Positions 1 through 62,756 of a DNA stretch of 64,000 nt are shown here, piece after piece. This DNA is from Cyanidioschyzon merolae (Eukaryota). Below the pieces are notes generated by a model. The model worked only from the letters and a program-made list of their open reading frames with translations. It made no database searches and was not told the origin of the DNA. Each line of letters begins with the position of its first letter. Position 1 is the stretch's first letter. The stretch lies in the NCBI GenBank assembly GCA_000091205.1, contig AP006496.2; one strand, given 5' to 3'. Position numbers and translations under genes: made by a program.

Positions 1-1529
1 GAACACTTGCCGTCTTTGCCACTGTACTCTCGTCATCGTCCTGTTGGGCAAACACTGTTCCTGACCCATTTCCCCTCCTCTGCTTCTTTATTTGATCTTC
101 TCCGTTCGGCTTTAGTCGACAAGAGGATTTTTTCGTTCTTTTCCGGCAGTCGGCGATGTCGGGCCTCGAAAATCCTCGGCGTCCATGTCCATACCTTCTC
201 CTTCGGTTTCTTATTTCTTCAAATCAACGCACTTGCTTATGCCCTTAGATGAAGACATTCCCTGCGGGAGAAGGGCTTGCGGACGGCAGACATGGTATGC
301 CCCACTGTGTCGCCGTGTGCTGAACGCTTCAGCGATTCGCCCAGTGCAGCGATTATTGCGTTTCACGATAGAAAACACTCCTTCGATGGCATTGAAGCAC
401 GTAGAGCACCGAGGAAGGAAAAGCAGCTCTATCCCTATAGAACCGGCAAAATCCCGAACGCAAGGGGAATGGTGAAATGTCACCTGACTTCAGGGAGAAG
501 CCTTCAGTGATTTGGCAAAGCGAGTGTGATTGTGTGAGCCTTCTCTACGAGAAAGACTGCGGCCGCCAAAAGAATCCGCTGCATCTAGAATCGATGATGA
601 TTTCCGAGTTATCTTCGAGTTCGATCGGATATTCAACGGGCTCGCTGCTCCTGGACTATCCGAGCACGCTCCGACCGTATCATCCAAAGGAAGTCGCATC
701 GATTGAAGAAACAAACCGACGTCTCTCTGCTGCATATCGATACTACCTATCCAGGCACGTTGTTGTAGTTACGATTTCGGTGGAAGATGGCCGTGCGTGG
801 AACTGGACCCCATTTTTGCGACTGTATCCCAGTATTTTTAGGACAACAGGAACAAGCTATCGAGAAACAGAGACGCCCATGGTGGCTACTTTAGTCGCTT
901 TCGCTTTCAGTAAAGTCATCGACGAGTCATTTTCTACCATTGGCGGCAAGCACGCAATAAGAATACCCGTTTTTGGCGCGGAGCGCATATGCTTCTTTCT
1001 TTCCGTGTTCCTATATCATCTCTGTATTGTTGCATGACTGATCTGAAGGAGAAAAGTAGTCCTCCTTGAGCTGTTCAGTGCAGAATATATCCTACATGCA
1101 ATTCGTCTAGGATATATACAGTACATTCCAGCATGATTTCGATCCCATCCTATACATCGCAGCTGGGTTGGAGCGTAAATGAGTTGAGACACTTTAGGAG
1201 GCAGTACTGACGCGCGCTTCGGTCCCTGCACTTCCCTATTTATCTAGGCTTGTTCCAGATATACAGCCTCGACACTCAACGTGCACCAGTGAGAACTTAC
1301 GGATGCGTACTTATTTTCATGATTCTCCGGCATAGTTTCGGAGTCACTTTTTCGAGGCCTTACTGCTAGAACGCTTTGCGACGCCCTCGAACAAAGATGC
1401 GTGAATTAAGCGATATCGTTAATCAGTAGGTACTTACCAGATTGTACCCCCTTCTTTCCTTACGTGTAGCACCCTCAGATGACGCATGCTCCAAGTTCAC
1501 AGTCGTTCTATTGTAAGGCAACTCGTTGG

Positions 1530-2660
1530 CGCAACAATGCGCGCTGCTGAATTGAAGAGGAGGAGAAATTCTCCACTTCGTCCATGGTCGAGCTCATTGC
1601 ATGCATATGCTTAGAGTTCACTGAAATATTCGTGTGAAATAATGAATCCCGTTTGAGACGCAAATCCTTTCCTCATTGCAACCATAGACAAAACGGCATT
1701 CCACAATAGCGCGACGCCTCTCAACGGATATGTTCTCGGATGCTTCCGTTTCTTTTCTTTGCGTGGTAAAGGGTTCTGGACTCCGGCTTGAGTCATCGTA
1801 GCGATCGCTATTCGTGCAGAGTGCGTTTCCGCTGTATTCGAAATGTGCGTAGGGAGGAGTCGACGTTTCTTGACTTGATCTCGAGTCTAGATTTTCCTCA
1901 TGGTACGTTTTTCACCATGGACAGCATCGCGTCCCATAAACTCTCTTCTGTTCGAAAAACAGCAGAGAACGGAGGGTGAGTCATCATATTCAACCCCATT
2001 TATTCTGCATCTATCAAACCGATAGAGGACGTCATCGGGGCCGTGAAATGAAGCAGATGGAGAGATTTCGAATGGGACAACTGCACCTAGTTATGCTGCG
2101 GACGGATTACCCGGCGAGGGGATCGTCCAGAAGAAGCCCACGATCGAAGAGCACGACACCAGGCGTGAATACCAAGGGGCTCATCGCGAGGAGCCCTCTT
2201 TACCCGCCGAGGGCCTGTACCAAGCGATGAAGCAAGCATTCACGCGTCACGTGACGGTCCTCAGAGGAGGAGAAGGTCCAAATGATATATAGGAACACCT
2301 TAGCAGGTTCAAGGGCGCCCGTACGCGGGACGCACCGAGCCTGCACACAGAGAAGATGAAAATAGGAAGCGAAACGAAGATCGCATCTTGGGCCAGTCCA
2401 TTTCATCGTTCGACAGCAACTCGGAATCTAGAAATCAGATCTTGAACGCTGCCACCGATACCCTTCGACTGCTGACAACGCTGCTGGAGGGAAAGGAAAG
2501 ACCGGCGTATTTAAAGCCAAAGGTCAGCGAAGCGGAAAGGAGGCTGTCGCAGAATTATCCCCCAACGACTAATGTTCGTGGCAATGGGAAGAGACCCAAA
2601 ATTTAGTTTCTACACCCGAGTCAGCTGACTGGACCGGTTCCACTTTATTCTGAAATAGGT
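1530..2660 (+). mobile_element. Miniature, internally deleted TnpB/Fanzor-like derivative (family 2, copy a)
   Basis: 5-prime block caacaatgcgcgctgctgaattgaag, shared with the other family-2 copies. Mid block ...gacaaaacggcattccacaatagc. 3-prime remnant RNQILNAATDTLRLL (degenerate D-x-NAA-x-NIL RuvC-III motif) at about 2430. Conserved tail ...gtggcaatgggaagagacccaaaatttag...tacacccgagtcag...ttattctgaaatagg ending at about 2655. Confidence 0.6.
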
Positions 2661-2859
2661 GTGAAGCGATGCTCACTTTGGATGAAGTTTAAGGAAACTG
2701 ACCGCTCGTTGCGTCGGGGCGATGGATCTTTGTCGACGCCTTCCACGACCGAAAAACCAACCAAGCCCACAACCACTGCTTCAATGAATAGCGCAACGAA
2801 CGCTCTGCAATCAGCAATTCAAAGAACACCACACCTCATCCGTCACTACATAGAGAAAC

Positions 2860-4287
2860 TCACTGTCCACATCCCGGAACAGAGGGCGCGAAGCCTATGG
2901 ACGAATTCTCGCGATTAAAGACAGTTGTAAAACGCCGGAGGACAAGGTCGCCAATCACAACAAGTGCACCTGTGGGCGAGAGAACCTCTAGGCCCAAGCA
3001 ATAGTACAGCTCTCCAGCGAGTTCCACTCTTATTAGATATGTGTCGCGCGAGATGTTCAGCGTCGCGTCACTGTCGAATCTTATTGTTATGTCCGGGAAA
3101 CTACGGTATGCGGCATCCGAGAGGAGCGTACAGCTAGGTGCCTCCGACCAGAACCTGCTATGGCACAGGTGGGCGTCAGCTGCACAGACAACTGACTTGA
3201 TTTCCTGAATCACTTTGGTGAATGCTTCGCCACCTAACGCCATAAGCGTTGTGCCAGAGTCGAAGACCACTGGATCGGCATATGAGCGCAAGTTGGATCC
3301 ATTTGGGCCAACACGGAACTCCTTGACGCTGGCTGCATAATATGGGACAAGGCTCCGAGGAAGATACCGTACCCAAGAGTAGGGTCCCCGTCGAAAACGC
3401 GTGTCCGCCTCTGCGCCGAGAATGAGAGCGCCACCGGTATCCGATAGGCAAATACTAAAGATATTCCTCGCAACCACGCCCTCCTCGAACATGATGTCGA
3501 ACAGCGGTTTCGGGCATGATGGAGAGCATGCTGCTTCCTGGAATGCGAGCCCCCAAATGCCACCCACATTGCGCCGTTCGAACGTTGGAGAGTCATACAA
3601 AATCGCCGTGTAAAATGCTTTTCGAACGCTCAGCCCTGCACCGGGCAAACTCACAGGGCCTTGATGCAACGCTCCAAACACGTAGGAACCGTCCGCATAC
3701 GACAATATCATGCCGCAGCTTTCAGGATCAAGAAACGAGCAGCATGCTTCGTTCCTGCGAGAGCATGCTCCACAGAGCGCGCTGCAAGTCCCCGATAGAC
3801 ACACGCTGGAGTCGCTGCAGGGAACCCTGGTGGCATTCCAGTCCGATAATCGTATAATGCCGTCACTCCGCGGACAGTCTAGGCATCGTGACACTGCGAA
3901 GGCCAGGTTGGCGCTCCCCGTGTCAATCTGAACGCCAATCTCCTGACCATCTACACCCAACCGGGCGTAGTATTCACCAAGTGGAAGAAGCTCGCCGTGT
4001 AGCGGCTCAACGGCGCCAGCGCGGAATACCGCAGCCGCAGAGGCCCGCTGCACCGCTGGAGCAAAGTTCGCTCCGCCTGCACTCGAACCAAGCGCACCCT
4101 CGAGCCCGGCCCGCACGTGCTGGTACTTGAGCAAAGCGGGCCGCACTTCGGCAACTTTCTGGTGGCGTTTCTCGAGGGGTAGCACCCGTGTTGCTGCAGC
4201 GGCCGCAAGAGTCAGCGCCTCACAGAGCATCACTGCCCATAAGAGAACGGCCAACACCAGCCGCACAGCGCTACTAGTCAAGTGCAT
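2860..4287 (-). CDS. Pepsin-like (A1 family) aspartic protease, secreted or vacuolar
   Basis: Both catalytic motifs are present: VQIDTGSANLAF (DTGS) and VVFDSGTTLMAL (DSGT), with the conserved flap and Cys-rich regions. The track ORF 2860..4464 was trimmed to the in-frame ATG (cat at 4285-4287), which precedes a hydrophobic signal peptide MHLTSSAVRLVLAVLLWAVML. Confidence 0.8.
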   Translation of the reverse strand: MHLTSSAVRLVLAVLLWAVMLCEALTLAAAAATRVLPLEKRHQKVAEVRPALLKYQHVRAGLEGALGSSAGGANFAPAVQRASAAAVFRAGAVEPLHGELLPLGEYYARLGVDGQEIGVQIDTGSANLAFAVSRCLDCPRSDGIIRLSDWNATRVPCSDSSVCLSGTCSALCGACSRRNEACCSFLDPESCGMILSYADGSYVFGALHQGPVSLPGAGLSVRKAFYTAILYDSPTFERRNVGGIWGLAFQEAACSPSCPKPLFDIMFEEGVVARNIFSICLSDTGGALILGAEADTRFRRGPYSWVRYLPRSLVPYYAASVKEFRVGPNGSNLRSYADPVVFDSGTTLMALGGEAFTKVIQEIKSVVCAADAHLCHSRFWSEAPSCTLLSDAAYRSFPDITIRFDSDATLNISRDTYLIRVELAGELYYCLGLEVLSPTGALVVIGDLVLRRFTTVFNRENSSIGFAPSVPGCGQ

Positions 4288-35226: not shown

Positions 35227-36066
35227 TCAGTCGCGTTCTGATAGGCGATGAAGCACTCCATCCACTTCCTGCTCGGTCAGGACCCGGAAGCGCTTCTTCT
35301 CTTTGGTCACGATGGCAATTTCCAGGTCGGAGGGCTTGAGCTCGGCGCTCGTGACGGACTGAAGTGCGCCGATCGCAAGCTCCAGCGTCTCGTCGTCCGA
35401 GAGCGGTATGTCGCAGAGTGGTGCACCGTATCCTGCCTGCACCGCAGCTCCTGATACGGCAAGCCGATCGCGCTGCTCTTCACTGAGCTCTTCTTGTTTC
35501 TCTCGCAACCGTTTCTCCAGCCAATTCTGGGCCTCAACATCTTTCGCCCCGGCGGCACATGCGCGGTATCCGATGCAGTAGCCGGCTGGATCAACCTTAT
35601 AGAGACGTGGTCCACTGTAGCCGCCCTCGTGATCATCCCAGCCCAGGAAGAGCAGCGTCACCCCAAGCGGGCGCATATACGCGTGCTGTGTGTACACCTG
35701 GTTGATGTCCGCAAGCCGCGTCGCCAGATACGACACGGGCGCCTCGTAGCCGTTCTCGTAGCGAAACTCCGAGGCCTCCGCACGAAGTCGTTGAACCTGC
35801 GCTCTTCCGTCTGTAGCCAGGCCAGCAAACACCACACCGTGCTGCTCCGATATTCGCGCAGCGCTCGACACCGAGTCCGGCTCCACAAGACGATCCGGCA
35901 GCTTCCGCTGAACTGCCACACACACACACTGCGTGCCCCGAACTGCAACCGCCGTTGTGCCCGGTAGCTTCACCGCCTTGAAGGCGTATTCTACTTGGAA
36001 CAGCCGTCCTTCAGGTGAAAACACGGTTATATGCCGGTCATAGCCGGCACTAGTCCCGCGACTCAT
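35227..36066 (-). CDS. 20S proteasome subunit alpha type-6 (alpha1)
   Basis: MSRGTSAGYDRHITVFSPEGRLFQVEYAFKAVK is almost identical to the PSMA6 N-terminus. The track ORF extends upstream to 36234, but the conserved start is the Met at 36064-36066. Confidence 0.9.
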   Translation of the reverse strand: MSRGTSAGYDRHITVFSPEGRLFQVEYAFKAVKLPGTTAVAVRGTQCVCVAVQRKLPDRLVEPDSVSSAARISEQHGVVFAGLATDGRAQVQRLRAEASEFRYENGYEAPVSYLATRLADINQVYTQHAYMRPLGVTLLFLGWDDHEGGYSGPRLYKVDPAGYCIGYRACAAGAKDVEAQNWLEKRLREKQEELSEEQRDRLAVSGAAVQAGYGAPLCDIPLSDDETLELAIGALQSVTSAELKPSDLEIAIVTKEKKRFRVLTEQEVDGVLHRLSERD

Positions 36067-37089
36067 CACGCGTTTTACGTCTTCCACTATGAAGCGGGCC
36101 TCGTGCAACTGTAGCTGAAGTTCGCAGCGGCGTAGTGCACGAGACATCCGCGCTGAATCTTCGCCATGACGATTTCTGATGACAAAACGTTCACATTGAC
36201 CATGGATCGCAGGGTGCGAGATGGATATTGGCATTCTGGAAAACGTTCATCATGCTGGATCCTACCTCCGATATCCATTACTTAAACTTCTTCTCGAATT
36301 TACTGGTCGCTTCACACGATCCATCGAGCGCCGAGTGCCTGTTTTGAGCTCCAGCTAAAGCGCCCAAACCGCCAATGCTGAAGCAGCACGGAGACAGAAC
36401 AGCTTTGCCATGCTACAGAGGGCATCGGCTCGAGAAGTGTTTCATCCGACACGGGGTCGAGATTCATTATCATTCTGGGAGCCTGCAAGCTGTGCTGATA
36501 GATCTACTGCCTGCGGCAGCGGGAAGCGATTTACAAGGAGTCCAGTGCGACCGATGCGACGCCCAAACGCACCCTACCTGCCCCTTATCCAAGAATAAAA
36601 TACGTTGCGGACGAGCAGCTCAAGACGCTCCACTGCACCTGCCACCGAGGGTAGCATGAAGCACCAGTCCGGCAGACTCAGCCGGCTCGCGGGACTTTCC
36701 GACTAGAATGTAAAAGTTCGACAATATGGAAACCTATTCCCCGTTCAACGTTTATCCTAGAGGGGAACGAAATTGTTATCTTGGCGCTAGTTAGTGGTCA
36801 GTTTCTGTTCTTTGTTCTATAGAGCGCAGTCGATATGCGTACATACAAATCTGGCATGCATGAGACACGAGGCGCATCTCGCCGTTGAAAGGAAACACGA
36901 TCCTTACCACTAGTTGACTTGTTGCTCTATTGGGCATGTTGCATTTGCGTTGAAGTCGTAGCAAAGAAAGTTTTCAGTTCAATCGTATTTCAAACCGCAA
37001 GCAAGCATATTCTAGTGTTTTTCGGTGTTTATAACAGAAGTGTTCGAAGCGGGTTCGTTTTCAAAAAAAAAGAAAAGTTATCGAAATGG

Positions 37090-39320
37090 AAAGGGAGGAC
37101 CCTGGAGGGCCAGTATCGCTGGTTGGCGGAAGAAACCAAAAGCATGACGGAGCAAAGAGGTACAAGAGAAGACGAGGAAGCATAAGGGGGAGACCCGACG
37201 TTAATGGCTGCACGAAAGACGACACCACGACAAGAAGTTGGTGAAAGCCTGTCTTCTGAGACATATCAAGAGCCCGTACTACCAAAAGTTGCAAAAGGCT
37301 GTCAGAAAGCCTGTCAAGTCGTACTCCACGAGTGTGGGTGACGTTTCTTTAAGACTGATGCGTATGGCGAGAGATCTGTATCGCGAATTGCTGCACATGG
37401 AAAGATTCGGGTTCCGTAAGAGTTTTTCAACAGGATCTTCACCAGCTACCTGATGGCTGGAACAGGGAAAACGTCTTGGAGAGACGAGCGAGTGCACGTC
37501 CTCCAGGAAAACTTCGCGGAGTACCGCTTCAACGGTACGTCATACAAGGATGACTCGCATATTTACGAATACGGGGTGATGAAGTACCTCACGAACCTGA
37601 AGAACCACATGATCGTGCGCCTCGAACGCTTCATGGTACGCTCTTTCTTTGCACTCTACCCGGGACTGTCTCGCAAAGGGATATGGGCCATCATCCACGG
37701 TATCACGAAAGATCGTCATCATGAACAGTAGATAGAATTCATCGACAAGAAGAAATCACACAGGAGAAAGAATCAGGGTTATGTAATATGTGTGGCTATT
37801 CAAGAGCACCGTTCGGTCCTGGAGCTTGTCAACCCACAGTGGGAGTATCAGATATGAAAAAAGATGAAGAAAGATGTCATCTCCTCATCCTGCGCTATGT
37901 CGTGTTTTTGAATCGAGAACTCGAACGCAAGGCAGAGATGGATCAGGATATGGAAGAAAATGAAGCGTCGGTGGAACGGAATGCTATGCCTTTGAAGAAG
38001 ATCTTCTATGTCGTTCCGCTATGCAACACCAAGTCACATTTTGTGACGATCGACTCCAGAATCTTTTACGGCGTCATGAAGGAGATCCGCTCGGAGTTCG
38101 ATGTAAGCAGGTAGGAGTTCACTGGCAAAAACTGGGAGACGTACTGGAAGAATACCTTCCATTTCAAACGTCTCAAAACGAGCAAGCAAGGGCTATTCAC
38201 GGAGATCACCGAAACCGATGGAGTATCCATTTGCGCACACTATAGTCGCTTGAAGGCGGATCGTCCTATTGTGTTTTCGGCTTCGCCCTCGCTGAAGCAT
38301 GAAGATGAGAGGGAAGCAGGCCATAAGACGAAGGAGATGCAAGAGAACGACTCCCTGGTCAGCGCAGATCCTGGGAACACGAATATCATAACCATCGCGG
38401 CACGCAAGTGTCGGGAAGATGGTATCGACGGCAACTTACGTCACAAAGACATGCGTCTTTTGAAGTTCTCAAGAGCGAGATACTACCGAGAATCGGGAAT
38501 AATGAATTGGAGGAGGAAAAGTGAGAAATGGAATGCAGGAGTGAGGGAGCAACTGGAAGCGATCAGCCAGGTGACTAGCCATGGGGCGGACTTCAAAGCT
38601 TACCTAGAGTTCATAGAAACTCAAGCTGCTCATTACGAGGAGCTGCGGAAAGAGTACACAAAGCCCCCGCGGGCTCGTCTGCTTATGAACTTGTACTGTG
38701 GGTAGCAGCGTGCATTTGCCAAACTTTTCAATCAGATGAGCACCCTCAAGGAGGTCAAGAGTCAAAGACTCGTAGTAGCTTATGGAGCACGGCGCTGGAG
38801 GCCCAACAGAAGAGCATACCAGCTCTATCAACGAGAGCGTACAAGGAGTGCGCCATTCGTTTCGTCACGGTACCGATAGATGAGTTTCGAACGACCTATG
38901 TGCACCACGAGCTGGGGTGCCTGCTCCAGAGGATCGAGATGCAGTGAAGGCAGCGGAGCCCTGAGGATATAGAAAAGTACGGAGAGCTCACAGAGAAGGA
39001 TGTGGAGTAGAGAGCACGAGTTCGAGGACGACTTGCCCCAGAGAGTACAACCAGCGGCGGCAATAAACGCATGGATTTTGTGAAGCTTGAATTGAACACC
39101 TCCCTCAATGGCAGACGATGTGTGGTATTGAAGACGAGACCCGCCGAGCTGACGCGATCCAACTTTGTGGGCAGCCTGTCAGGTTCGAACCGTACAAGGG
39201 AAAGCCAATGCCGATGGCAAGGCGCCGGCCAAAATAGGCGGGAGGCGTCTGCAGGTGGTTGTGTATATATAGACTCTCTCGTCGGTATGTATTCGCCATG
39301 ACGATGAGAATCAACAGCAC
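37090..39320 (+). pseudogene. Fanzor/TnpB-like (RuvC-type RNA-guided nuclease) element, family 1, copy 1. Frameshifted, and the RuvC-III Asp is lost.
   Basis: Coding pieces lie in frames 2/1/0/2/0/2 (track ORFs 37238.., 37453.., 37788.., 38021.., 38250.., 39071..). RuvC-I SADPGNTNIITIAARKCREDGIDGNLRHKDMRLLKFSRARYY at about 38360. RuvC-II-like RFVTVPIDEFRTTYV at about 38850. The position homologous to RuvC-III reads LELNTSLNG, where copy 2 has NRDFNAATNI. It is paralogous along its whole length to 59440-61620. Confidence 0.7.
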
Positions 39321-57924: not shown

Positions 57925-59115
57925 TTACATAAGCGCTTCGGGCTCTTCCAGCTCCATCAGCTTCGCGCACAAGGACGGCACAACCTGTGCAGGCCAGAGA
58001 CCCTCGACGATTCGCTCCCTACCGAGCAGGATCAAGCGTAGGTCGTAACTGTAGGGGCTGCCCGAGGCGCCTAGCCACATCAAACTGCTCTCGAACTCGG
58101 CAACAATTCTGCTGCTTTCTCCGTCAGACGCGTTCCACGAAATTCGCTCCTTACAAAACCCATCCCCCGAATGCACGGGTACACCTTGCGCGGTGGGTTT
58201 CGACGCCACGCCATTCATTATATCGCCCATTTTGTACTGTAGGGCCTGCACCAGCCTCCGAAAATGCCGGAATTCCTCGCGCGAGAGTGCAATCGTCCAA
58301 TGATCATCGCCCACGAGAGCACAGTCAGACGGCGGTGCCGCGGGATCGTGGCCGATCTTGAAACCTGGCCCGCTGAAAACATACTGGGGACGTACGCCTC
58401 GCGGTGCCGAATGATCGCCATCGCGTACTATAAGCGAGCAGCAGCCATTGATATCGCACTCCACGATCATTTGCGCAGGCTCACTTTTCTGGATTGGGAG
58501 CTCCATGGCAGGAGCAGAGTATTCATCGCCTTGCAGTTGCTGCCCCATTTCGTCCAGATTTGGAGTCGACGCTGCTGTGTAGGTTACGCTGTTTGCATAG
58601 TCGTCACCGGCATCGTTCAGGCCCGTCCGAGGAAGCTGGTACCAGCCGGTAGTGTCCTGCTCGGGCTCGACAAACAGCTCCGCATCGGAGACCGCAACTT
58701 TCCTTCCGACTTGCGCGCGAACTGCCTCTTGTCCGGACGCCGCCTTGCCCTCTTCTGGGCGCATCTTTGCCCGCACCTCTTGCAGCAGCTCGTCGAGCTG
58801 TGAGCGCAAATCGTCCAGTGCTTTCATCGCCTGCTTGCGCATCCGCTCCCTTCGTTCGCTGATTGCCCTCAGCTCAGCCTTAAGCTGCTCCTGTGTCTTC
58901 CGCGGCCGCATAGGAAGCACGCTGGGAATATCCGCATGCGACTCGCCTGAATCGCTGGACGGTATCGAAGACGACTCCTGGAGCGTTATCAGCGGTGCCG
59001 TCGCGCCACGGCGTCGCCTGCCGGTGCCCTTAGCATCGACCCTGGAGCTTGATCTCGCTGCCACGGCAACCGAGGGACACAGACTCCAGGCACCGGGATA
59101 CGCAAAACCAATCAT
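57925..59115 (-). CDS. Hypothetical protein, 396 aa (N-terminal coiled coil, Cys-containing C-terminal region)
   Basis: Long ORF. ATG at 59113-59115 (the track start at 59121 is GTG). No recognised domain; it contains ECDINGCCSLIVRDGDHSAP. The real gene status is uncertain. Confidence 0.4.
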   Translation of the reverse strand: MIGFAYPGAWSLCPSVAVAARSSSRVDAKGTGRRRRGATAPLITLQESSSIPSSDSGESHADIPSVLPMRPRKTQEQLKAELRAISERRERMRKQAMKALDDLRSQLDELLQEVRAKMRPEEGKAASGQEAVRAQVGRKVAVSDAELFVEPEQDTTGWYQLPRTGLNDAGDDYANSVTYTAASTPNLDEMGQQLQGDEYSAPAMELPIQKSEPAQMIVECDINGCCSLIVRDGDHSAPRGVRPQYVFSGPGFKIGHDPAAPPSDCALVGDDHWTIALSREEFRHFRRLVQALQYKMGDIMNGVASKPTAQGVPVHSGDGFCKERISWNASDGESSRIVAEFESSLMWLGASGSPYSYDLRLILLGRERIVEGLWPAQVVPSLCAKLMELEEPEALM

Positions 59116-59439
59116 AAGCACAAAAATAAACGCGTATCTCTGCGCAGCTCAGAGAAACTCCAACGGTGTCACCGCTTGCAGCAGCGAATCGAGGAGAGTT
59201 TTCTCGGAATGAACTGCGAACGTGCACCGGGTCGCGACGGTGCTCAGCTGGAAGTCGCCGCCGCCGCCGCCGCCGTGCTGCACATCTGAATGGATTGACG
59301 GGCGATACAGGATGTTGTTGTGGTACAGTCTTTCATCTCCATTGTGTTCCATCCCCGGGGTTCTTGTTATCAAATGCTTTTCGCAGTTTATAGCAGATTC
59401 GGCACAAGTGCGTTCATTTAAAAGAAGTACAAATTCCAA

Positions 59440-61620
59440 AGGAGCGGTACGGACATGGAAGTCTAGGATCCTGGAGGGTCGATGTCGGCGCCTGCTGGAA
59501 AAAGCACGGAATACAATGCCGAGCTCAGAGGACCAAGAGAAGATGAAGAGGCAAAAGCAGGAGGTCCGACGTCAACAGCAATTCGAAAGGCTAGACTGTG
59601 AAGAGATTGTAGTGGAAGCCAGTCTTCATCGACATATCAATGATCCGCACAAGCGAAATATGCAAGAGGCCATCAGAAACCGTATCGCGTCGTACTCTAC
59701 GAGTGTTTGTATCGCTTCTCCAGGAATAATCCGTTTGGTGAGGGAGATGGATCACGACGTGACGGAGATCAAAACAGTCGAGGTTTCGGGGGAATTTTTC
59801 GACAGGACCTTTATTCGTTACCTGATGGTTGGCACAGGGGAAATGTCGAGGAGAAATGAGCGAGTGCAAGCCCCGCACGAAAATCATGCTGAATAACGCT
59901 TCAACGGTACTAGATATAGGGACACTGGCGAATCTACGAATACGGCGTGATGGACAACATCACGAACCTGAAGAGCCATATGACCGTGAACCTCAAACGC
60001 TTCATGATACGCTCCATCTTTGCGTTCTTCCCTGGCCTGTCTCGCAAGCGGACATGGGCCATCATCGATGTCAGCATGAACGATCGTCGGAACGAAGAGG
60101 AGATCGAAATTGTCGGTAAGAAGACGCCACGCAAGAGAAAGAATGAAGCTTCTGTAATCCGCGCGACTATTCATGAGCACCGTGCGGTCTTGGGTCTTGT
60201 AAATCCAACAGAAAAGGTAACAGATACAAAAAAGACGCTATCCCCTCATCCTGCGCTGTTTCGTCCTCCTGAACCGAGAGCTCGAACGCAAGCCCGATAT
60301 GGAGCAGCGTGCGGAAGAAAAAGCAGAGTCGGTGGAACGGAAGGTTTCCCTACTTGGGAAGCGCTTCGGCGTCGTTCTGTTGTGCAACATAAAGTCATGT
60401 TTCATGAGTATCGATTCCAGCGTCCTTTACGGTATTATGAGGGATATGTGTCCGGAGTTCTTTATCAGCAACAAGGAGTTTACAGGTCAAAACCGGGAAA
60501 CTTATTGGAGAAATAGATTCGATTCAAGCGTTTCAACACGAGCAAGAAAAGGGTACGCACGGGGCGATCGAAACCGATGTATTAGCCATGCGTGTGCACT
60601 ATCAGCGCTTAACGGCAGATTGTCCAGTTCCGTCGTCGGCTTCGCCCTCGGCGAAGCACAAAAAGAAGAAGGCGGGCCCTGGAACGTATAATCCCCCGGA
60701 GAACAACTTTGTCGTCGGCGTGGGCCCGGAGAACAAGGATATCATGAGCATCGCTGTGTCCAAGTGTGGGGAGGATGGTATCGACGGCAACTTATGCCAA
60801 AAAGACATGCATCTTTTAAAGCTATCGAGAGCGAAATATTACAGAGATTCTGGGGTATTTAATGCGAGGAAACTAATTGAGATATGGAACTCAGGAGTAA
60901 AGGAGCATCTGGAAGCGATCAGCAATGTAACGCTCCGCGGAGTGTACTTTCGAGTTTTTCCGGAATTCATGGAAACCCAAGCTGCTCATTACGAGGAGCT
61001 GCGGAAAGAGTACACAAAGCCGCGTTGGGCTCGTCAGCGTATGAACCTGTACAGACTGAAGCAGCACGCACTCGCCGACTTCCTTAATCTGTTGACCGCC
61101 CTCAAGGAGGACAAGAGTCAAAGGCTTTTATTGGCACACGGAGCAGGGAACTGGGCGTCCAAAAAAGGGAGCATACGAGCTCTATCGGCACGAGCGGACA
61201 TGGAGTGCGCACTGCGTTTTGTCACAATATCGATACATGAGTTCCGAATAGCGTACGTGCTCGATGGGCTGGAGTGTACACTTCAGAAGGTCGATACGGA
61301 CAGAAGCCAGCCGAGCGTTTCGGAGACAGAAAAGTCCGGAGAGCGGACAGAAGAGCAAATGGAACGGAGGGCACGAGTTCGGGGAATCCTTGCATATTTG
61401 AGTACAGCCAGCGGCAATGCTGGAAAGAGTCGGTGAATCGAGACTTCAACGCCGCCACCAATATCAGGAAATGTGCGGTGCTGGAGAAGAGACCCCAGGA
61501 GCTGACGCGATCCAACTTTGTCGTGCAGCCTATCAGGGTCGAAGTGTACAAGTAGCTGAAGACGATAGCAGCGGGCCAGTCAAAATAGGCCGTAAGGCGC
61601 CTGCGCGTTGGTATGAATTT
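59440..61620 (+). mobile_element. Fanzor/TnpB-like (OrfB-type, RuvC nuclease) element, family 1, copy 2. Frameshifted, and the RuvC-I Asp is lost.
   Basis: Coding pieces are track ORFs 59222.., 59947.., 60299.., 60588.. and 61274... RuvC-I position GVGPENKDIMSIAVSKCGEDGIDGNLCQKDMHLLKLSRAKYY at about 60720. RuvC-II-like RFVTISIHEFRIAYV at about 61200. Cys cluster plus RuvC-III CIFEYSQRQCWKESVNRDFNAATNI at about 61430-61480. The stop is at 61555, followed by a conserved non-coding tail. Confidence 0.75.
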
Positions 61621-62756
61621 ATCCAACACGGCCGAGAGAAAGTTTTCGTTTCACTGAGCGTTTGTGAAAGTTGTGTGGCTTTGTTGACGGGCGCATGGTT
61701 GCTTTCTTGCAAAGTGGCGCGTTTCCGCTCAACGGCAAGCTATGGAGTTGGACGGCGTCTCCTAAAGGGAGGCCTCTTCGCTGCGAGCGGACCCGGAAGC
61801 TGTCGTGGCGTAGAGGCCGTGGCTCCTGGTCGGTGCGGGCGTCGCACTCGGGCGAGACGGACCCACGACTGGTGCAACTTGGTGGAACAGACCGCACAGG
61901 AACCTCAGGCGACCACGAAAGGTTGCTGTGGGAGGCGTTAGAGCGCGACGTGAGCGAAGCTGAAACCGTAGGTAAGCTTCCACAGCCTTTGAGGACAGAG
62001 CTTTTGTCGAAAATAAGGGAATTTGTAGAAGAGGTAGCGCAGCGTCAGTCAGTGCACGATCTGAAAAGTGCGGATTTCGCACTTAAGGATGAGGCCCTAG
62101 CGCCCGACAGTCAGTGGCAGCTCGTTGAACCTAACGAACCGTCGGACGCGGTTCGCTCCACCCAGCCCAGGCGTGCATCGAGTTTTGGGCCGGCTGCTGA
62201 CTGCCTCACACAAAGCCCGCGAGATCGGCTCGCTTCTCAGCCCGGAGGCGCGGACTTTAATCAAAACGGCCAAGAACGCCTTGCAGGCATCAATACCTCA
62301 GGCGTGGACAGCCCTGAGAAAAGGTCAGTGTGTCCGCCCACTGCCGTACACAGAAGGAGCACTGTTTCCGTTCACGCGGAAGAGTGGACTTGGTCAGATG
62401 ATAGCGCGTACGACCCGGTTGATGGAGCGAATGAATACAGACCCGAACAACAACTCAACTCTGATACGCCAAACCCGATACGAGGGAGTGCAAAAGACCC
62501 CTCTGAAAGAGATATCAAAGCCCAGGAGTCCGCGCACCACGCTACCGAGGATCGAGAAATCCTCTCAGAATTGTCGGAAGTCGAGCATGCCAACGACGAT
62601 CGTACCCTGGACACACGCGATGCGTATGGGCGGATGCAGCAGCGCTTGCGCCCAGCGTCACGCACGCAAATGCGCATGGATGTGCCTGGCAACGACACGC
62701 AGCGCGCGCGCGAAGATGCACGAATCGGCCCCGAGCAGCCTGTGTCGCAAGCATCG

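Follow-up and report, generated by a model that had tools for sequence, protein, structure and literature searches.

The window analyzed here is a 64-kb segment of nuclear chromosome 14 of the red alga Cyanidioschyzon merolae 10D, and all coordinates refer to it, position 1 being its first letter. Particular attention was devoted to the feature at 59440-61620, hereafter copy 2, which a preliminary description made from the sequence alone had interpreted as a decayed eukaryotic TnpB homolog of the Fanzor type. This interpretation is borne out by the match of copy 2 to the published transposon CMe-1A, by family profile matches restricted to Fanzor1 proteins and by the lesions of the element. With a probability put at about 0.95, copy 2 is an old, inactivated and truncated CMe-1A insertion, a molecular fossil from which no activity is expected.

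Identity of the element

CMe-1A is a non-autonomous DNA transposon of about 3.2 kb whose sole gene encodes the 734-amino acid (aa) Fanzor1 protein CMe-1. Bao & Jurka (2013, Mobile DNA 4:12) list it as one Fanzor1 family of C. merolae. They report some 150 copies, every one with an identity of about 80% to a consensus of roughly 3 kb, devoid of terminal inverted repeats (TIRs) and with target site duplications (TSDs) left undetermined. The first 635 bp on the 5' side are identical to TE-N2_CMe, an element in its own right, and intact proteins are still encoded by some of the copies. The 3169-bp consensus and the CMe-1 protein are provided in Additional files 2 and 3 of that work, and the coding sequence (CDS) occupies positions 906-3110 of the consensus. 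The family and its Fanzor1 assignment have thus been public since 2013.

Comparison of copy 2 to this consensus using blastn yields a single high-scoring segment pair (HSP) of 2248 nucleotides (nt), far above chance level (E = 0), in which 59323-61543 corresponds to consensus 785-3020 with 77.7% identity. The match is prolonged by tblastn with CMe-1 up to residue 728 of 734 (window 61609), as five HSPs alternating among three frames with 57-66% amino-acid identity. Recognizable homology, delimited by tblastn and pairwise alignment, extends from 59323 to about 61608, and no similarity to the consensus was found upstream of 59323 by pairwise comparison. The interval 59440-61620 spans the remnant of the open reading frame (ORF) well, an ATG being present at 59456. 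The region is devoid of long ORFs, the longest piece measuring 282 aa (60588-61436).

A second copy, copy 1, first located at about 37150-39270, lies on the same strand and is 71.6% identical to copy 2 at the nucleotide level; the frame-stitched proteins of the two copies, about 705 aa each, share 50% identity. Its blastn match consists of one HSP (36178-39190, consensus 2-3021, 80.5% identity). The statement that the family is present in the genome therefore stands, as both copies match the published consensus, with about 80% nucleotide similarity over most of its 3169 bp. Regarding the termini of CMe-1A (left CGATGACAAAACG..., right ...TTTTGAAAGGCG), copy 1 retains the left one only and copy 2 neither; truncated members are still members of the family.

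Lesions and catalytic motifs

Upon global alignment to the consensus CDS, the ORF of copy 2 displays at least seven indels that shift it between the three forward frames, located near 59504 (+1), 59919 (-1), 60225-60231 (-11), 60523 (-1), 60561 (-1) and 61414/61427 (+2/-6), in addition to four in-register stop codons (TAG 59464, TAA 59894, TAG 61553 and TAG 61586). The ORF had been described as broken across four frames: it is broken indeed, and the wording was loose. Copy 2 also lacks the 5' 784 nt of the consensus, consisting of the TE-N2-like 5' module and further sequence upstream of the ORF, as well as the terminal 80 nt or so (consensus 3089-3169), which form the end of the structured right-end region examined below. 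As the ORF, one catalytic residue, the 5' region and the end of the putative scaffold are lost, copy 2 is considered inert.

All four peptide strings quoted in the preliminary description are present on the plus strand in the order stated, GPENKDIMSIAVSKCGEDGIDGN and FVTISIHEFRIAY within the 282-aa ORF and CIFEYSQRQCWKESVNRDFNAATNI within the ORF at 61274-61555. The blocks assigned to RuvC-I, RuvC-II and RuvC-III occupy the proper positions of the family, and only the fourth assigned motif, a Cys cluster, proved to be an artefact.

The RuvC-I block was placed correctly, with the reservation that its catalytic Asp is mutated in copy 2, the codon at 60723-60725 now being GGC (Gly). The consensus reads GADPGNTN, copy 1 SADPGNTN and copy 2 GVGPENKD, the change from GADPG to GVGPE having removed the Asp. 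The DPG motif with its catalytic Asp, expected of a Fanzor1 protein, is therefore found in the family consensus and in copy 1 and is missing from copy 2; its loss reflects the decay of one member and is no argument against homology. At RuvC-II, the alternative Glu (Ealt) lies in TIPVDEFRTSY in the consensus, TISIHEFRIAY in copy 2 and IDEFRTTY in copy 1, while the canonical Glu position reads VVAYGAG or LLAHGAG, without Glu. At RuvC-III, the catalytic Asp, the RD pair and NAAxNI are all found in copy 2 and have been lost by copy 1 (VKLELNTSLNG). The stretch VNRDFNAATNI is also the only part of copy 2 touched by the Pfam TnpB/Cas12f C-terminal model (PF07282), below threshold.

Concerning the supposed Cys cluster, CIFEYSQRQC, its first Cys (61391-61393) belongs to the wrong frame, the homologous frame reading RGILAYLSTAS, and its second Cys (61418-61420) falls at the junction of the +2/-6 indel. 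The family displays RGLLALVSTTSDGKKRMEF, without Cys, at this place. Close relatives read RAKVRGLLALVSTTSDSKKRMEF upstream of VNRDFNAAxNI, matching the other frame of copy 2 (RVRGILAYLSTASGNAGK), and the cluster is therefore not a family feature.

Copy 1 is decayed as well: alignment to the consensus CDS reveals six 1-nt deletions and nine in-register stops, with DPG and DEF intact and NRD replaced by KLE. The preliminary description had regarded copy 2 as the most likely origin of an RNA-guided nuclease system within this window; since both copies are dead, neither can plausibly provide one. The features of both copies are collected in Table 1.

Table 1. Features of the two CMe-1A copies in the window
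Feature	Position	Strand	Remarks
Copy 1, full-length but decayed CMe-1A	36173..39257	+	Consensus 2 to ~3088
5' non-coding module of copy 1	36173..36850	+	Part of CMe-1A equal to TE-N2_CMe; not in copy 2
Copy 2, 5'-truncated CMe-1A	59323..61608	+	Consensus 785 to ~3088
Degenerate Fanzor1 (CMe-1) ORF of copy 2	59456..61608	+	Global alignment to consensus CDS 906-3110
RuvC-I motif remnant of copy 2, VVGVGPENKDIMSIA	60711..60755	+	Consensus VVGADPGNTNIITIA; alignment to consensus
Alternative-Glu RuvC-II motif of copy 2, FVTISIHEFRIAY	61218..61256	+	Consensus FVTIPVDEFRTSY; Glu codon 61239-61241 kept
RuvC-II/RuvC-III linker of copy 2	61385..61432	+	True frame RGILAYLSTASGNAGK, then +2/-6 indel; consensus RGLLALVSTTSDGKKRMEF
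RuvC-III motif of copy 2, VNRDFNAATNI	61433..61465	+	Consensus VNRDFNAAINI; Asp codon 61442-61444 kept
Proximal 3' region kept in copy 2	61466..61608	+	Consensus ~2945-3088; pairwise alignments

Relationship to Fanzor1

The CMe-1 protein family is, on the sequence comparisons described here, a member of Fanzor1. A profile built from 60 full-length members (A5, the relatives P0001 and P0002 described below among them) was compared to all Protein Data Bank (PDB) sequences, and the only significant matches are the solved Fanzor1 proteins of Parasitella parasitica (PpFz1, 3.9e-22), Spizellomyces punctatus (SpuFz1, 2.4e-12) and Guillardia theta (GtFz1, 4.5e-5), the next best matches following at E = 1.5. 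These matches are 300-380 residues long and bring the motifs DPG, DEFRTS and NRDxNAAxNI into register. Within them, the RuvC-I DPG Asp of the family is aligned to the DPG/DPN/DPG of the solved proteins, and the Ealt motif to DEFRTS of PpFz1 and DEYKTS of SpuFz1. Fanzors are distinguished from typical TnpBs by DPG at RuvC-I and by an alternative Glu just upstream of the zinc-finger position (Yoon et al. 2023), and the family consensus carries both features.

A close-family profile (A4) was also used in an exhaustive hidden Markov model (HMM) search of 1.84 billion representative proteins, which returned 963 relatives at E <= 1e-3, including 192 at E <= 1e-30. Many of them are 600-700 aa long and display the motifs DPG, YGGKKR, vPTt.a.kEC, DE[FY]RTT, RGLLWC and NRDLNAAINIRRC; PF07282 touches these relatives below threshold only.

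Several results weigh against the Fanzor1 assignment. Searches of Pfam and the PDB with single sequences give nothing significant, not even for the intact consensus CMe-1, and the link to Fanzor1 is therefore transitive, by way of the family profile. Pfam-A returned nothing relevant for the raw ORF pieces or the frame-corrected proteins of both copies; neither phmmer with the reconstructed copy 2 nor hmmsearch with a 13-sequence close-family profile produced a match among PDB sequences; intact CMe-1 alone gave no PDB match either, and its sole Pfam match was a sub-threshold one to PF07282 (11 residues, E = 0.52). The structure prediction proposed in the preliminary description was performed on the relative P0001 using AlphaFold2 and a shallow 13-sequence alignment, and the model (predicted local distance difference test score, pLDDT, of 35) was unusable for fold comparison and was discarded. 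Finally, the family is devoid of a canonical C4 zinc finger between Ealt and RuvC-III. In this region (consensus residues 598-668, window 61218-61432), which reads THHELGC...EKC...RGLLALVSTTS, the consensus TSYTHHELGC...EKC...RGLLALVSTTSDGKKRMEFVNRD contains no CxxC pair: the position of the first CxxC reads THHEL, and LALVSTTS replaces the second pair. Distant relatives retain parts of the finger (CTSC, GLLWC). The Fanzor motif of Bao & Jurka is [TS][TS]-x-x-C4-x(5,50)-RD, and CMe-1 was nevertheless classed as Fanzor1 by these authors (Bao & Jurka 2013).

The proposed profile search thus had a divided outcome, the reconstructed protein giving no significant match and the 60-member profile matching Fanzor1. 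The absence of a significant profile match had been named as grounds for abandoning the Fanzor call; applied here, this rule would wrongly reject it, because the intact CMe-1 protein fails to match as well.

According to a different explanation, the element would encode an unrelated protein family, DUF8286, whose RuvC-like motifs arose by chance. The non-significant single-sequence searches speak for it, together with the missing C4 zinc finger and an annotation of the relatives limited to a weak PF26935. It is effectively refuted by the 60-member profile, which matches only three independent solved Fanzor1 proteins with the catalytic motifs in register, by the DPG plus Ealt signature and by the placement of CMe-1 in the Fanzor1 clade (Bao & Jurka 2013), and is judged very improbable. 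Pfam DUF8286 appears instead to cover part of a Fanzor1 clade.

The 3' region

In characterized Fanzor and TnpB systems, the 3' end of the gene and the transposon right end together encode the omega-RNA, and the flanking sequence past the right end supplies the guide (Saito et al. 2023). The consensus 3' region of the metagenomic copies, near-identical to the matching end of the published CMe-1A consensus, is predicted to form a long closing helix, internal hairpins and a terminal hairpin (-63.6 kcal/mol, z = -3.17 versus shuffles). The folded region comprises the last 90 nt or so of coding sequence and about 60 nt past the stop codon, and this putative structured RNA sits where characterized Fanzor/TnpB systems encode their omega-RNA. 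Support for an omega-RNA in the 3' region of CMe-1A is only moderate. Two results argue against it: RNAalifold applied to 39 tails gave a weak structure (-8.3 kcal/mol) with compensatory changes in 3 of 19 pairs, and an Rfam scan of 58500-62500 returned no match. The former test has low power, since transposon copies decay neutrally after insertion. Among copies, conservation of the 3' region does not exceed that of the ORF, identity being 0.79-0.87 throughout. A long-range helix proposed by hand, AGTAGTGG...CCACTACT, was dropped, being broken in several copies.

The proximal 3' region kept in copy 2 (consensus ~2945-3088) is still coding in the consensus and represents the 5' half of the putative omega-RNA region; the tail of copy 2 shows no excess folding (z = +0.16). 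Both window copies leave the consensus at the same point, about 3088 (window 61608 and 39257), where all similarity is lost, and the distal tail module TCGCCACTACTGTACAC has no match in the window with up to 3 mismatches. The missing 80 nt or so hold the closing helix and the last hairpin. Consensus positions 3120-3169 are reached by 66 of the 72 metagenomic copies with enough flank; the shared stop of the window copies may be a coincidence or may denote a subfamily with a different right end.

It might still be supposed that copy 2, or copy 1, remains functional through frameshifting or splicing, or by supplying in trans a regulatory or guide RNA to intact CMe-1 proteins encoded at other loci of the genome. 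Copy 2 does keep about 140 nt of the region structured in the consensus, and the genome may contain a protein acting in trans, given the intact CMe-1A proteins reported (Bao & Jurka 2013). Against these points stand the catalytic Asp to Gly change, the frameshifts (at least seven) and four stops of copy 2, the absence of its 5' upstream region and of the terminal 80 nt, which would connect the scaffold with the guide, and a tail without excess folding. Splicing rescue is further disfavored by the very few introns of C. merolae. Such residual function is considered highly improbable.

The family in hot-spring metagenomes

With the alignment of the two copies as query, a word-seeded search across 5.8 billion proteins retrieved only 11 relatives (P0001-P0011), all originating from metagenomes of the Joint Genome Institute (JGI). 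The best of them, P0001 (752 aa, 46% identity), is located at 8001-10259 of contig L001, with GRAM/VASt, aldehyde dehydrogenase and 2OG oxygenase genes as eukaryotic neighbors. The precomputed annotation of the 11 relatives consists only of PF26935 (DUF8286), marked weak and not reported by the local Pfam-A search. A scan of metagenome contigs produced 445 stretches encoding relatives, of which 80 loci were fetched, and 81 loci were examined (L002-L081 being JGI hot-spring metagenome contigs). The median identity of these copies to the published consensus is 84%; intact-like genes were found at 3 of the 81 loci, two of which carry the same P0001 gene. The family of the CMe-1A type looks old and largely extinct in Cyanidioschyzon-like hot-spring algae.

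Copies fall into two classes according to their 5' ends, with and without a module of about 680 bp. The left edge of copy 1 (36173-36179) is sharp and common to 19 metagenomic copies, and this left terminus, mapped independently from the latter, coincides with the consensus start CGATGACAAAACGTTTACATTGACC. TSDs, TIRs and a target motif were looked for at the mapped termini and nothing convincing was found, in agreement with Bao & Jurka (2013). The 5' module was also examined for a further gene, and no consistent ORF was found.

Side observations were also made on these copies. Many are broken by stop codons within one frame rather than by frameshifts. The TE-N2_CMe-like 5' module lies directly downstream of other CMe-1A copies at L050 2563-3213, L067 4728-5342 and L068 7658-8272, which suggests that copies are arranged in tandem or nested in one another, or that TE-N2 copies stand alone there. 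P0001, P0008 and P0011 carry 2-5 tandem repeats of a unit of about 24 aa (..KHEExKEAxPATQEVxDNDFVVxA..) that directly precede the RuvC-I strand NDFVVGADPG. The strand leading into the catalytic Asp is duplicated by this repeat, and the unit is single in the window copies and in the consensus.

Genomic context

Seven long ATG-initiated ORFs of the window were looked up, and six are present in the protein collection, five as exact C. merolae 10D proteins located on a single record of 852,727 bp (CMN tags), namely DNA polymerase delta (BAM81299.1), CMN205C, glycosylasparaginase, a Rieske subunit and eIF2-alpha. The remaining one, proteasome alpha-1, clusters at 90% with its C. merolae counterpart. 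Pfam identifies ordinary eukaryotic genes throughout the window, a formin also being present, and the guanine-plus-cytosine (GC) content is uniform (0.48-0.59). The element is therefore placed in red-alga nuclear DNA. Contamination of bacterial, viral or assembly origin, the bacterial form of which had been listed as a possible refutation, has virtually no probability and found no support, being countered by the location of the element between host genes on a finished chromosome, the uniform GC, the two diverged copies within the same window and the hundreds of related copies on Cyanidiales-like metagenomic contigs with eukaryotic neighbors.

The left end of copy 1 (36173-36178) falls within a 335-aa ORF (35227-36234, minus strand). 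The annotated proteasome alpha-1 gene is shorter (279 aa), and this left end is situated about 110 nt upstream of it. Near copy 2, the coding region of a 398-aa ORF with a DUF1818 domain (57925-59121, minus strand) ends at a distance of some 200 bp from the 5' edge at which the element is truncated, and the interval 59122-59322 matches neither the DUF1818 gene nor the element.

Proposed ancestral mechanism and significance

RNA-guided cleavage of double-stranded DNA, dependent on a target-adjacent motif, has been demonstrated for SpuFz1, GtFz1 and others (Saito et al. 2023). By analogy, the ancestral CMe-1 protein would have formed a complex with an omega-RNA produced from the transposon right end and the 3' end of its gene, the guide in the active ancestor being the sequence just beyond that end. 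The ancestral RuvC site, composed of the DPG Asp, the alternative Glu of DEFRTS and the NRD Asp, would have cleaved DNA matching the guide beside a target-adjacent motif, and this cleavage may have helped the element to persist or spread. It counts against this scheme that we infer the ancestral activity by homology with SpuFz1, GtFz1 and TnpB.

A more tentative suggestion, which we hold to be rather doubtful, is that the few intact CMe-1 genes are active RNA-guided nucleases operating without a canonical C4 zinc finger and using the 3' region of about 220 nt (~2950-3169) as omega-RNA. Candidate genes could be P0001 on contigs L001 and L003, the gene on L026 and the intact C. merolae copies mentioned by Bao & Jurka; the red algae harboring these candidates live in acid hot springs. 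If the suggestion were true, loss of the last 80 nt would mark both window copies as guide-less relics.

The discovery value of the locus is small: the family and its Fanzor1 assignment have been available since 2013 and the RNA-guided activity of Fanzors since 2023, and copy 2 is dead. Its value lies rather in calibration, as a Fanzor relic was correctly called from sequence only and the obvious Pfam/PDB check would have wrongly rejected the call, the Fanzor link emerging only from the family profile or from published work. The family may be of interest with regard to the Fanzors of a thermo-acidophilic eukaryote, and the starting point would then be its intact members, not the copy 2 locus.

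Comparison with known systems

The window copies share genome, family and gene order with the CMe-1A described by Bao & Jurka (2013), copy 1 having in addition the same left terminus, and are like it devoid of recognizable TIRs or TSDs. They differ from the consensus, which encodes an intact 734-aa protein, in that both ORFs are destroyed and positions 3089-3169 are gone; positions 1-784 are also missing from copy 2.

Bacterial TnpB (IS200/IS605 and IS607, such as ISDra2 TnpB) and Cas12f belong to the same RuvC D-E-D superfamily as CMe-1, although the Pfam model Cas12f1-like_TNB (PF07282) matches only 11 CMe-1 residues, below threshold. Guide RNA is encoded at the transposon right end in bacterial TnpB systems and, putatively, in CMe-1A. 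Typical TnpBs are marked by D-hydrophobic-G and by a canonical Glu that precedes the zinc finger by about 50 residues, whereas CMe-1 carries DPG and Ealt (Yoon et al. 2023). Unlike the bacterial IS elements compared, CMe-1A has no TnpA partner.

Counterparts of CMe-1 are also the solved Fanzor1 proteins PpFz1 (9CF0), SpuFz1 (8GKH) and GtFz1 (9CER). The CMe-1 family departs from them by the lack of a canonical CxxC...CxxC zinc finger and by an identity too low for single-sequence detection, while profile similarity extends over the WED/REC/RuvC region. In CMe-1A, a putative structured RNA region overlaps the 3' end of the gene. Both are borne on eukaryotic transposons, and both share the DPG of RuvC-I, the alternative Glu within DE[FY][RK]T[ST] and the N-R-D of RuvC-III.

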